Numbered from the stretch's first letter, positions 36,101-45,100 are shown. The stretch: 64,000 nt of DNA from Eledone cirrhosa (GCA_964016885.1 OZ024743.1:127658001-127722000); one strand, 5' to 3'. Notes: generated by a model from the sequence alone, not told the origin. Made by a program: numbers and translations.

Positions 36101-39100
36101 GCTTCTCCCACGGTCAACTCTATGTTGGTTGCTCATGAGCTCGAAGTAGCAACAATTTATTCATTTGCACACCAACAAAAAATTACACTATGAATATTGT
36201 TTACCCTGAGGAGCTTCAAGATTGATAAATTTTCATTTCTAAATTCTATTATCATTACATTTTTGATATTTAAAAAATAAAATATAGATATTTTGAAATA
36301 ATTATGAGAAAAAATATACCTTCATATTTATTGTTTACTAATCTGAATAAGAACAGCAGTAACCCGGGCAGCGCTGGGTCATTCAGCTAGTATAATATAT
36401 ATGAGTTATGACGTCACTGGTGTTAAGCTATAACGGCCCTTGCTTTCCCTTGAACAACATCATATACAGTGTACAAAGTGTATATATATTGTGTATACGA
36501 AGTGTATATATTGTGTATGTAGGATGTGTAACAATATTATTACCAAGCTGTATCGAATCTTACTTTTCCTTTGGACAACATCGACAGAGTAAAGAGGAGA
36601 AACTTTTAAAAAATTTTATATTTATATTTATTTATCTACCTATCGAGATGTTAACTAAATAACAGAAAGAATTCGTGTTGGGAAGGAATGGTAAAATGAA
36701 CTTCTTCCAGTCTTCAGATAAATAAACAATACCATTGCTAGAACGAAGCAATATCACACACACATACGTACGCGCACACACACACACGTACGCACGCGCA
36801 CACACACCCACCCACACACACGCGCGCGCGCGCACGCACACACACACACACATTACTAACAAGAATAAGGATGTCACGTCTGAAAAAATTTCAGACAAGC
36901 GCTATATTTCCTGTAAGGAAAGCTTTAAGAAAGATTCTAAGGAGTAAATCCGAGCATTTATTATAAAATAAAAAAAGGTGTGAGTTCATAGTTATATCGA
37001 CCTCTCACTGACGATCCATTGATTTGGCTATTGAACTCTGCCATTTAATTGGTGAAACATATTCTTAAGCAATAATAGAATATGTATGGAAGGATATGAA
37101 TAATCACAGAATGTCTCAGATATTTACAATTTACAACTCTCAGGTACTTACAAGTCTAAAATGTAAGTTTGAAGAAAAATATATAGATAAACATTACCAA
37201 AAATTCCTCCAGTCCCGACTATCGATAGTTTCGCTCGTACTTTGTGGATATGTCTAATCGTTGCATTATCCACGAGGCTCCGAGTTTTTCAAGAGACTCT
37301 CTCAGTTAGGACCAAAGTCTCTAAAGTGATCGCCGTTAGTAACGAATTCAAAAGGGGTGAGAAACATCACGTGGCTAGCGGTCAAGATAGAAGTGTTGTG
37401 AAGGTTATGCCGGATGGCAAGTAGGTTCATTGCTAGAAGAAGCAGTTAGTTACCGCCTAAAGTTTACTCAACCGTAAGGGAATAAAGAATAAATTCCTAA
37501 GGACACACACACACACAGACACACACACACACACACACACACACACACACACACACACACACACACACACACACACACACACACACACACACACACACAC
37601 ACACACACACATATATATATATATATATGGTATGTGCATAGGCATTCTATAAAAAACCGTAGACTAGAGAACTCAACGACGCTGGCCAATACGATCTGGC
37701 AGCTTAAGGACATCAACCAGGAATATGAGATTAGCTGGTCTAAGTTATCGAGTGCAAGGGCCTACAAAAATAGAATGTCCCACTGCGGACTTTGCAATAT
37801 GGAGCTGCTCCATATTTTAAAGTATGATAAAATGCTGCTTAACAACAAAATAGAACGATCAATTTTCTGTAGGCACAAAGCAGCTACCAAGTTCAAACCG
37901 GCCTGATTCGATCCAGCAATCTCGGAATTCAAGCAGAACCACCCCGGTTTTAATGTACTAGCTCCACACCACTCCACTGTTATTAGCTGTCAACCGACCA
38001 ATTGATCATTAAATCAACATCATAAATCTCCCAACATTTCTTCCACTCTCTCTCTATAACCGCATCACCTCCATTAAGATAAAACAATCAGTCTCCCTGA
38101 CCTTTCACTTGTTATTCTCTATCTACTCCTTCTTTGTCCTTAGTCACTTGCCCCTTGGCTGGGAAATGCCTCATCAAGGACATAGTGTACGACTGTAAGG
38201 TCTCCACTTTAGATAGAACGTTCATGTATGTTGGGGCGACTGCCACTGAATTTAAGGATAGATGGTATAATCACCGCCATACCTTTAATAGAATAGATTA
38301 AAAAAATAGCACGGCGCTTTCTGAATTAGTCTGGAAGCTTAAAGAACAGAATATAGAGCACTCCTTATCCTGGTCCATAGTTTGCTCAGCCCAGCCATAT
38401 AACGGCAGCACGGGCGTTTGTAATTTATGTATATCTGAAACCTTTAATATAATTAGAGGCGGCCCCCTACTAATCAATAGGAGAGCGGACTTTTCAACAC
38501 CTGCCAGCATAGAACCTCGAAAACCTTCCTCAGGACTTTTAGAAAGTAACCTACCACTAACTCCCCCCTTTTTACCTTAGCCATAGAGTTCTCTCAATTA
38601 GCAAAAATAGACAATCACACACTCAGGTAGTAGACAGCTAAGATCGTTTGAGCACTTACACACTACTCGTTATGCTTCCACAGAGTTCTCACAGCTGAGT
38701 GCACATTTACCATTACTTTAGAATACCTAGTTAGTAAATAGTTAGAACAATTACACACGCAGTTAAGACCGATTACACGCATCCACCATTACTTTAGAAT
38801 ACCCTAACCATAGAGTTCTCTTAGTTAGTAAATAGTATTATTACACACTCAGTTAAGAACGATTACGCTCTTTATACATAACTCTACACACAGTATCCGG
38901 TTTCTTTAGACACGGAGTTCCCACAGTTATGACCAGTCACGATCTTATCAATTGAATACTACACTAGGTTTTTGGTATGTGATCCTCTAACTATGGAGTG
39001 CTCAGAGTTGTTGAATGGACAATACTACTTACACGCCATCAATGGGCTTACACACATCCCCGGGGTATTGTTATTTTATTTTGTGTTGAGTAACACACCT

Positions 39101-42100: not shown

Positions 42101-45100
42101 AAAAAATCTAAGGCTATTTCGGCTTGTAAACATAAATTGCACAAAACTTTCCTGTATTACAGCCCCACGTTATACCTTAAGGGATAGTACGATCTATACG
42201 TGGATATTTTACGTCTTGATGTGGGAGCTAAGTATATTTTATGTTTATACCATTACTTATTTGCATAGGGAACGTTTCCACGAACCAAAGTATCGTCTTC
42301 CTGTCTTCCTCCGGTTGCAACGGTTTTTGAAATATCCACTTCTGCGTTTACAGATTGACTTTGTTAGTTTCAGAAGATCCCGTTAAGAGTGAAAGCAGCG
42401 ATTCTTTGCTTAAACTTTAATCTGTTATTTTAATATATATATATATATATATATATATATATATATATATATATATATATATATATATATACATAAATAT
42501 ATATATATATATACGTATCTAACTACGTATATAACATATACATACAAATATATGTATGTATATGTTATATACGTAATTAGATATGTATATGTATTTTTAT
42601 AAGTGTGTATATATATTTATATGTACGTATTTTTTGCGTGTGTATACGTGTTATGTAATATATAAATCTTTAATAATATATGGATTTCTTAATATATAGA
42701 TCCAAATTTTTAATATATTGATCTCAATATTTAACTGATTAACTAAACATATTATCATATTTAAACAATGGTTACATTTCTCATATTATATATGTATATT
42801 CCATTCATGATTATTAACATTTCTAATTTTTATTTATTCATTTCATCTCAATTGTTAAGTTAACTCAACAAGGTATGACTTAGAGTTTTTCGTTCTCTCT
42901 CATTTTTTCCGTCTCCTCTCTCTCTCTCCATATTTCTCTCTCTGTTTATTCTGATCTCTCTCTCTTTCCTTCTCTATCTTTCTATTTCTCCGTAACCCAA
43001 CGGCTTATTTTAAAAATATCCAATACTAATAATTAACGCTATAACTCCACTATCCGGGAGCTTCCAACAGTAATGGTTGCATTCTTTAAGGGTATGTCAA
43101 TATTTATTTATAAAACTGATCTATATTATATTTTATTTGATGAAAGCACACCATAATTTAACTTGGTGTCCTTGAAATATGTATAATGAAATAAATATGG
43201 TTTTATAAATATAGTTTCCATTTGTTAATATCGTATTTTTACTCCAAATATTTGTTGAGTGCTTTATATCAGTTATAAAAATATTTGCTTGTTGTATCCC
43301 AACAATTTAAATAGAACTCTTACACACACATATATATATATATATATGAAAGACGTAAAATAAGATAATTATGAAAATTAACTTACTTACATATATATGT
43401 GTGTGTGTGTGTGTGTCATCAAGCGATGCGCACGCATGGTTATTTTTTCAAATCCAATTGAGTTCTAGCACGTGGCTTGAATTTTTTTCAGAATTCATTG
43501 ATCTGCGCGTGTATTGTTTTTTGACAGTAATCTCCCTCCACTATTTTAGTGACAGTGTGAAATTTTCTTTAGAACTGCTGGACTAACAACCTACCAGCTC
43601 CGTTAAGCACTGATGGTGATTATCGCTAAACATTGATGTTGATTTAGTTATCAATATTAATATTATTGGGCACCCACTGAAGAATTATAGGAGCCCACTT
43701 GAATAAGTATCTTTTGATCTTATACAAGCTTCTACATAAATTGGTATAATTTCACCCAACTTGTAGAAATCTTATAATGAAACGAGACGTCCGTCTGGGA
43801 AGAGATATATTTGATATATCTTATATGAAATGATACAGCCAATTTTCCAAACAATACAATTAGTTAGCACCCCGAACGTTTAATTAGGAATATACTCAGG
43901 TATTTCCTAATGTTTGTTGAGTGAGCTGGAATTCGGCCGGAGTATCGCTTTTAGCTTTCTCCGATTATATATATATATATATATACATATGTATATATAT
44001 ATATATATATATATATATATATATATATATATATATATATATATATATATATATATATATATATATATATATATATATATATATATATATATATATATAT
44101 TATATATATATGTATATATATATATGTATAACAAAGGAATTGTGGTAAGGAGCCATATGGACCATAACGCACCAGAGTACTCAATACTTAGGGTAGTAGA
44201 GTGGGAAATAGGAAAATGTATGACCACGACGGCAGAGCTCAAGCCGTTTCGACGGCTATTTCTGGACTAAATTAGAATATTTAGCCTGGTGAATAAATAG
44301 CCGAACTTTTCAAGGGGTACTTCCTTATATGGGAAGATTGTAGTTGTCAAGAGGATTGGTTAAAATTTGTTGTAAACACAAATAAGTCTATCATGGCATT
44401 TGGTGGGAGGTAGGGGTGGCTGAACTTGCCTGTAGAACAATAGGGGAGTGACAGGAGCGGTCAAGCGTTGAAAGTGATATGTATACAGCAGATTCTGAGG
44501 ACAGAGTATGAAGTGGAGGAGGGAGGTTATAGAATAGGTAAATCGAATGAGAGTAGGAGACAATAAAAGATAATAGAAAGAAAAAAAAATATAAAATTAG
44601 ATAGTGAGAAATGAATAAAAAAATCACAATGCTATAACCTCCCTCCTCCACTTCATACTCTATCCTCAGAATCTGCTGTATACATATCACTTTCAACGCT
44701 TGACCGCTCCTGTCACTCCCCTATTGTTCTACAGGCAAGTTCAGCCGCCCCTACCTCCCACCAAATGCCATGATAGACTTATTTGTGTTTACAACAAATT
44801 TTAACCAATCCTCTTGACAACTACAATCTTCCCATATAAGGAAGTACCCCCTTGAAAAGTTCGGCTATTTATTCACCAGGCTAAATATTCTAATTTAGTC
44901 CAGAAATAGCCGTCGAAGCGGCTTGAGCTCTGCCGTCGGGGTCATACTTCTTCCTATATATATGTATATATATATTATATATATATATATATATATATAT
45001 ATATATATATATATATATATATATATATATATATATATATATATATATACAATTAACAACAAAGAGCGCTTAGAACATAGGTATATCTTTAATTGCTGAC

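Follow-up and report, generated by a model that had tools for sequence, protein, structure and literature searches.

What a transposable element does with a hammerhead ribozyme whose core departs from the CUGANGA consensus, and whether such a ribozyme still cuts, are questions raised by three motifs in a 64,000-nt stretch of the Eledone cirrhosa genome (GCA_964016885.1, OZ024743.1:127658001-127722000; hereafter the window). The reading we favour, at roughly two chances in three, is that these are type I hammerheads with a U3-A8 pair in the terminal repeats of Penelope-like elements (PLEs), that stem II of one family, family A, probably holds the transcription start, and that a whole and probably slowly self-cleaving ribozyme would be present only at the RNA's 3' end. 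All three motifs, found earlier in a preliminary description of the window, have real type I folds. With ribozyme positions counted from N3 as position 0, the family A motif at 44848-44941(+) has its UUGAAAA core at 44852-44858 (N3 at 44852), a 56-nt stem II, a private GAAG in place of GAAA at 44915, and a predicted cut after C17 at 44937. Its hammerhead fold is the minimum free energy (MFE) fold (z -3.0), equalled by 0 of 200 shuffles. The motif at 44223-44318(-) (N3 at 44313, predicted cut after C17 at 44228) has one mismatch in stem I and a z of -0.73. The two are arms of one inverted insertion, and hence one event rather than two. The family B motif at 37211-37298(-) (N3 at 37292, predicted cut after C17 at 37217) has a UUGAAAA core, a 53-nt stem II and a palindromic stem III of the predicted dimer type; its hammerhead fold lies 5.3 kcal/mol above the MFE (z -0.22), and it carries A at 10.1, where the family state is G. 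By itself, only the copy at 44848 has a significant fold, the other two being weak. It is the families, with their strong common state, that decide that the motifs are real.

Similarity searches of the genome gave 1,799 candidates for family A and 574 for family B, 40 of each being scored. Of the aligned copies, all picked by similarity, 40 of 42 in family A and 28 of 30 in family B have UUGANAA as their core. For family A and its relatives (the A clan), exact patterns in the 3.0-Gb genome found 5,016 U3-A8, 1,545 C3·A8 and 45 G8 matches, the G8 pattern being two bases longer than the others; reversed controls found none. A, C, G and U all occur at core position 7 of the U3-A8 set, and G5, A6, A8 and A9 are fixed across subfamilies. 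U3-A8 is a fixed family state and not decay, and the window copies are not sporadic mutants of a CUGANGA family. The earlier claim of a compensated core stands as far as this fixation and the free position 7 go; it does not extend to the roughly one quarter of A-clan cores (1,545 of ~6,600) that are C3·A8. A strict descriptor, run on 100 evenly spaced 10-kb stretches (1 Mb in all; L075-L174), gave 15 matches (nine C3-G8, four U3-A8 and two unpaired cores) and none in three shuffles. It revealed a third U3-A8 family, D, with 1,297 candidates genome-wide and UUGAUAA in 29 of 32 aligned rows, one row being without a core. From a relaxed scan of the same sample, 14 of 18 U3-A8 matches at a score of at least 12 were dropped, 13 being an AT-rich satellite (L168) and one (L173) apparently spurious.

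In families A, B and D three helices surround the core, with stem I open. This is the MFE fold in A, and the constrained hammerhead fold in B and D lies 1-8 kcal/mol above the MFE. U4, G5, A6, A9, GAAA, A15.1-U16.1, H17 and a Watson-Crick 3-8 pair (U3-A8) are present in all three; the C3·A8 subfamily lacks the pair, and the copy at 44848(+) departs through its private GAAG. A G10.1-C11.1 pair closes stem II as the family state in A, B and D. Stem II measures 56 nt in A, 53 nt in B and 59-61 nt in D, and in A and B it folds as a stem, an internal loop and a hairpin. The description of a long, branched stem II thus holds for its length (53-61 nt) and its inner hairpin; the structure is an interrupted hairpin, with no branched junction. 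Nor is the length special to U3-A8, as C3-G8 matches in the same genome reach 50, 62 and 93 nt, most C3-G8 stems being 14-39 nt. None of the three window motifs matched the Rfam hammerhead covariance models at the gathering score or at E<=10; the earlier claim that CUGANGA descriptors miss such motifs is likewise supported.

The PLE nature of the elements, also proposed earlier, is supported. The family A ribozyme sits at the 3' end of a PLE with a Hydra-clade open reading frame (ORF) upstream. The window copy is an inverted, 5'-truncated insertion in (TA)n at 44128-44957, with a minus-arm tail of ~80 nt at 44128-44207. In a full-length relative elsewhere in the genome (L232) the tandem unit measures 3,118 bp, and its intact ORF of 719 aa contains RWR (37), DKT (117), CNCPDRSIC (572), VIYQC/YIG (591/606), CNLC (670) and CKH (698). 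The ORF agrees with the Hydra diagnostics (a RWK-like motif, DKT, CxCX5C, CxxC, CxH and a C-terminal endonuclease, EN), as does the element in its tandem pseudo-long terminal repeats, inversions, tail and (TA)n target. Family A is a Hydra-clade PLE, as placed by these motifs of its reverse transcriptase (RT) and EN protein; an assignment to the Neptune clade was dropped once the motifs fitted Hydra. A Pfam scan of the family A query protein gave no match, its best homolog carrying PF01541, and the EN domain brought up no relative in a metagenome scan.

The start inside stem II, which the preliminary description overlooked, is suggested by where A-clan copies begin. The 3' half of the ribozyme (46-67) has 35,316 exact matches against ~6,600 cores, about five times as many, and the core is present at 5 of 31 anchors in the sampled megabase. 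All 53 partial A-clan copies, over all loci, start at 35-53. The summed depth of contigs rises ~9-fold here in stem II in runs X1 and X2, and by more in a third run; the four runs are from one study, with the contig kind unrecorded and possibly from the assembly's own sample, and show the presence of DNA only. Depth over family D was uninformative. Among the first 100 matches listed, 12 of the 46 events with (TA)n junctions in 39-55 fall at 44/45, 3 upstream and 31 downstream. At (TA)nT junctions (n = 48, from the first 100 of 478 matches) the base before A45 is G in 28, the native T in 11, the target A in 6 and C in 3. Each of the 28 untemplated-G sites fetched is a clean insertion in its own right; at least four subfamilies are represented, and the copies end at the repeat end or the tail end, one a few bases short. 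In the window the start would be A 44897 (position 45; 44268 in the minus arm), within TTAGTC at 44895-44900(+). This hexamer, TTAGTC or TCAGTC, we take to resemble an initiator consensus with its pyrimidine-purine start. The 3' strand of stem II is nearly invariant and the strand pairing with it is variable. An untemplated 5' G has been read as a copied cap in work on L1 (PMC9341517), and the RT of an Anolis PLE is described as priming internally at two sites bounding the tail (Frangieh, 2024; PMC11167929). Sharp copy starts at A45 together with the untemplated G make it likely that the RNA begins, capped, within the ribozyme; with such a start the ribozyme would be whole only at the RNA 3' end.

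A second, smaller peak lies at the predicted cut. Junctions in 72-88 are about four times sparser than those in 39-55 (46 events in 283 Mb, compared with 46 in 72 Mb of C1), and 11 of the 46 start at G86, directly after GUC, with 4 more ambiguous (Poisson p~1e-4 against a uniform distribution). All 11 sites that were fetched are clean, and most have a full tail; by their 3' sequence seven belong to the youngest U3-A8 type, three to the C3·A8 type and one to the window type. The peak suggests a footprint of self-cutting after GUC. A sequence of events can be proposed that joins the two peaks. The RNA would start capped at A45, its 5' end carrying only the 3' half of the ribozyme (GAAA, stem III and GUC). 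Internal priming by the RT, at the end of either the repeat or the tail, would be followed by run-off at the cap, leaving tens of thousands of copies of 60-140 nt. The complete ribozyme copy at the 3' end would sometimes cut after GUC; the released 3' piece would keep its priming site and give the copies that start at G86, and long copies with an intact core would come from uncut RNA. Since long copies would come from uncut RNA, slow or partial cleavage would be tolerated. The fuller proposal, that a PLE promoter inside its own hammerhead splits the 5'-end ribozyme and leaves it whole at the 3' end, that the short copies amount to fossil 5' rapid amplification of cDNA ends and hold a footprint of PLE hammerhead cleavage in vivo, the first of its kind, and that the A clan is a natural series of C·A to U-A repair, is more tentative and falls somewhat short of an even bet.

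The history of the 3-8 pair bears on the last part. In trees of 29 and 21 A-clan copies, two clades of U3-A8 have C3·A8 copies between them, and at least two changes are required by starred branches, the root being one long outgroup branch and hence unreliable. The two arms of an inverted insertion differ by 0.7% in UUGAGAAGAUCGG (n = 5), by 2.3% in CUGAGAAGCUCGG (n = 7) and by 3.2% in copies of the window type (n = 3). The clade with 0.7% arm divergence, the youngest, is U3-A8, which led us to reject C3·A8 as the youngest subfamily. It is paired and yet nested among mismatched copies, so that its pair arose either through repair, by a C3-to-U change, or through recombination; the ladder-shaped tree allows recombination as the source.

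Several observations weigh against this account. No copy starts at A45 and enters the ORF (0 of 28 fetched sites), and the three tail-to-untranslated-region junctions seen all have a full core upstream, though they had been chosen for it. Joining at T44-A45 may be favoured by its match to the (TA)n target, and the junction tallies are of the first 100 matches listed (chromosomes C1-C2), counted by eye. Three of the 11 fetched G86 copies are of the C3·A8 type, expected to cleave poorly. G86, the first of four consecutive G, comes two bases 3' of stem III; because RT stalling at stem III or an added G could inflate the peak, the footprint is suggestive only. Both-sided covariation was not found within the A clan. 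Lastly, the 1,545 C3·A8 copies show that the 3-8 pair can be dispensed with in spreading; the mismatch did not stop amplification.

Could the A-clan hammerhead, then, no longer cleave usefully and be kept as structure or promoter sequence, the G86 peak being an RT stall at stem III? The spread of C3·A8 and its share of the G86 copies speak for this, as does the report that hammerhead mutants of an Anolis PLE inserted unimpaired, with no reads ending at the cut site in the data described there (Frangieh, 2024; PMC11167929), and so does the weak cleavage in vitro described for minimal PLE hammerheads (Cervera and de la Peña, 2014; PMC4209133). We nevertheless consider it unlikely. Position 7 takes all four bases, yet G5, A6, A8 and A9 stay fixed across subfamilies; the nesting of the youngest U3-A8 clade in C3·A8 copies, with starred support, implies repair or recombination to a pair; and stem I has been preserved in families B and D by compensatory changes. 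It seems improbable, too, that what piles copies up at position 45 is the inner hairpin of stem II, through arrest or snap-back of the RT, and not a transcription start. Fold-backs are frequent among the short copies, with their centres at 42-53, which is on the 3' strand of the inner hairpin as predicted; one of them, at 40089-40292 in the window, has its centre within stem II, begins at positions 47-52 and holds the ribozyme 3' half and tail only. However, the edge is sharp to one base, upstream starts are few (3 of 46) despite similar AT microhomology, the extra base is G rather than C (28 vs 3), the site reads TTAGTC or TCAGTC, and it is the 3' strand that hardly varies while its pairing strand does.

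Two further readings were considered. The long stem II would gain a use if the 5' half from the 3' repeat paired through it with the capped 5' end, forming a two-piece ribozyme that cuts 41 nt after the cap, and the halves do co-fold to a full hammerhead at -29.3 kcal/mol, against -2.9 and -14.8 kcal/mol alone. Such co-folding of two hairpin halves is, however, expected by construction, the 5' half has a cis partner directly downstream, and cleavage in cis already explains the G86 copies, so that we give this arrangement little credence. We give still less to the view that CUGAGAA is an active, register-shifted core, in which C3 pairs with a G at position 7, N7 is lost and an extra A is gained, and not a C·A mismatch. 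G does stand at position 7 in 94 of the first 100 C3 matches listed, where U3 subfamilies vary, but it is also the commonest base there in U3 copies, and shared descent explains it; moreover, loss of N7 from a hammerhead core is expected to be harmful.

Families B and D are probably non-autonomous PLE-derived units whose stem III would need a dimer. The window copy of B, at 37152-37505(-), is a fragment of such a unit, of ~700 nt; the D units measure 588 and 593 nt. Both are circularly permuted and non-coding, with one hammerhead each. No RT-EN ORF was found in them (longest stop-free frames 77, 68 and 131 aa), and none is linked to them in the fetched loci, a longer partner element being possible; they are likely mobilised by PLEs. 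Their palindromic stem III forms no hairpin in the monomer, the self-duplex being predicted at -15.5 and -12.9 kcal/mol. B and D can be aligned, and their stem I has changed in a compensatory way (one event for each pair, in two lineages). As a candidate for the loop 1-loop 2 tertiary contact, a UGAGG/CCUC(A) pseudoknot is possible between the 5' flank of stem I and the internal loop of stem II, and is kept in B, D and D2 (L046, L176, L100); in B and D 57% of cells are paired and both-sided change is absent, and A has no clear candidate. That A and B form one lineage was not borne out: nhmmer profile searches found no significant homology among A, B and D (A vs B, E>=25; B vs D, E-values of 7-9). 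A match of the B upstream region to D at 5e-4 was not used because the profile matches TA repeats. A and B were said to share no stem sequence; the start of stem II is an exception, with GNUCGG common to the A clan and B and GCUCGG identical between some A-clan subfamilies and B.

The surroundings are rich in related elements. GIY-YIG-type remnants of another PLE (37631-37843 and 38146-38499, plus strand) neighbour the family B copy; they lie on the other strand and are followed by a repeat-rich 3' region. A second Hydra-like PLE, near full-length and ~48-57% identical to pieces of the family A protein, occupies 40224-42430(+); it has a 534-aa stop-free frame, an EN deletion, a 95%-identical copy in L117 and a degenerate hammerhead at its end (~42355-42420, plus strand). 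Hammerheads of other families include canonical CUGANGA copies in an inverted pair (26442-26547) and at 63705-63777(+), with a 36-nt stem II, a canonical-core motif at 45087-45144(-) with a weak match to Rfam Hammerhead_1, and a U3-G8 mutant copy at 43127-43195(+). The relaxed scan of the 1-Mb sample gave ~35 canonical hammerheads per megabase at a score of at least 14, which extrapolates to the order of 100,000 genome-wide. One sampled locus (L117:2341-4718) holds retrozyme-like tandem 485-bp repeats in inverted arrangement, each having a hammerhead of canonical core whose stem II is 50 nt long. The window also contains an array in which a 67-bp unit recurs ~35 times with ~99% identity (16062-18400), and remnants of long interspersed elements (endonuclease, RT and zf-RVT) with a mariner-type transposase fragment (20059-22839(+), 27815-28474(-), 33382-33840(+)).

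How do these hammerheads compare with known ones? The U3-A8 swap, pointed out in the preliminary description, is by itself already known: natural U3-A8 hammerheads and the activity of covaried 3-8 pairs were described in 2011 (Perreault, 2011), and ~1,300 matches to U3-A8 PLE hammerheads in Schistosoma mansoni in 2014 (Cervera and de la Peña, 2014; PMC4209133). What would be new is the probable placing of the start within the ribozyme, together with the possible footprint of cleavage and the natural series at the 3-8 pair; a literature search, judged by titles and the openings of abstracts, found no account of transcription starting within a PLE hammerhead, nor of families A, B and D. The 2014 account states that there was no in vivo evidence for PLE hammerhead cleavage (PMC4209133). 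The copy junctions here bear on whether and why these ribozymes cleave in vivo, pointing to a capped start within the ribozyme and to a lesser one at the cut site, and the natural U3-A8 and C3·A8 subfamilies of the A clan, with thousands of copies, offer a test of cleavage rate against transposition.

The Cercyon PLE hammerheads of S. mansoni are likewise type I motifs in PLE repeats with U3-A8, a UUGAAAA box appearing in the S. mansoni(4) row, and their copies are mostly truncated, solo or inverted (PMC4209133). They differ in helix II, which measures 7-8 bp, has a short loop and is accompanied by an additional nucleotide after A9, where the present families have 53-61 nt, interrupted, and no extra nucleotide, and in stem III, which has 5 bp in family A. 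Family A shares with Hydra-clade PLEs the RW(R/K) and DKT motifs, the CxCX5C linker, CxxC and CxH around E and N, the C-terminal GIY-YIG-like EN and the (TA)n target (Craig et al., 2021; PMC8557442); its unit is 3.1 kb, against 'generally <3 kb', and its ribozyme is UUGANAA with a long stem II, whereas the Hydra hammerheads in File S2 of that paper are all CUGANGA with a short one. The two RT start sites and optional tail recall Poseidon PAc of Anolis, for which a protein-assisted hammerhead is described (PMC11167929). Families B and D are like non-LTR retrozymes (Cervera and de la Peña, 2020; PMC7229834; bioRxiv 2026.07.22.740005) in being non-coding, one-hammerhead, circularly permuted and likely PLE-mobilised. 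They are longer (~590-700 nt compared with 170-400 nt) and are dispersed as 1.x-mers and inversions with a non-canonical core, in contrast to the long tandem arrays of those retrozymes. Penelope of Drosophila virilis, finally, also has an internal promoter in its repeat. Its start, as described, lies 46 bp before an intron that ends in helix I, so that the hammerhead is whole in the 5' leader, whereas the start of family A would lie inside stem II.

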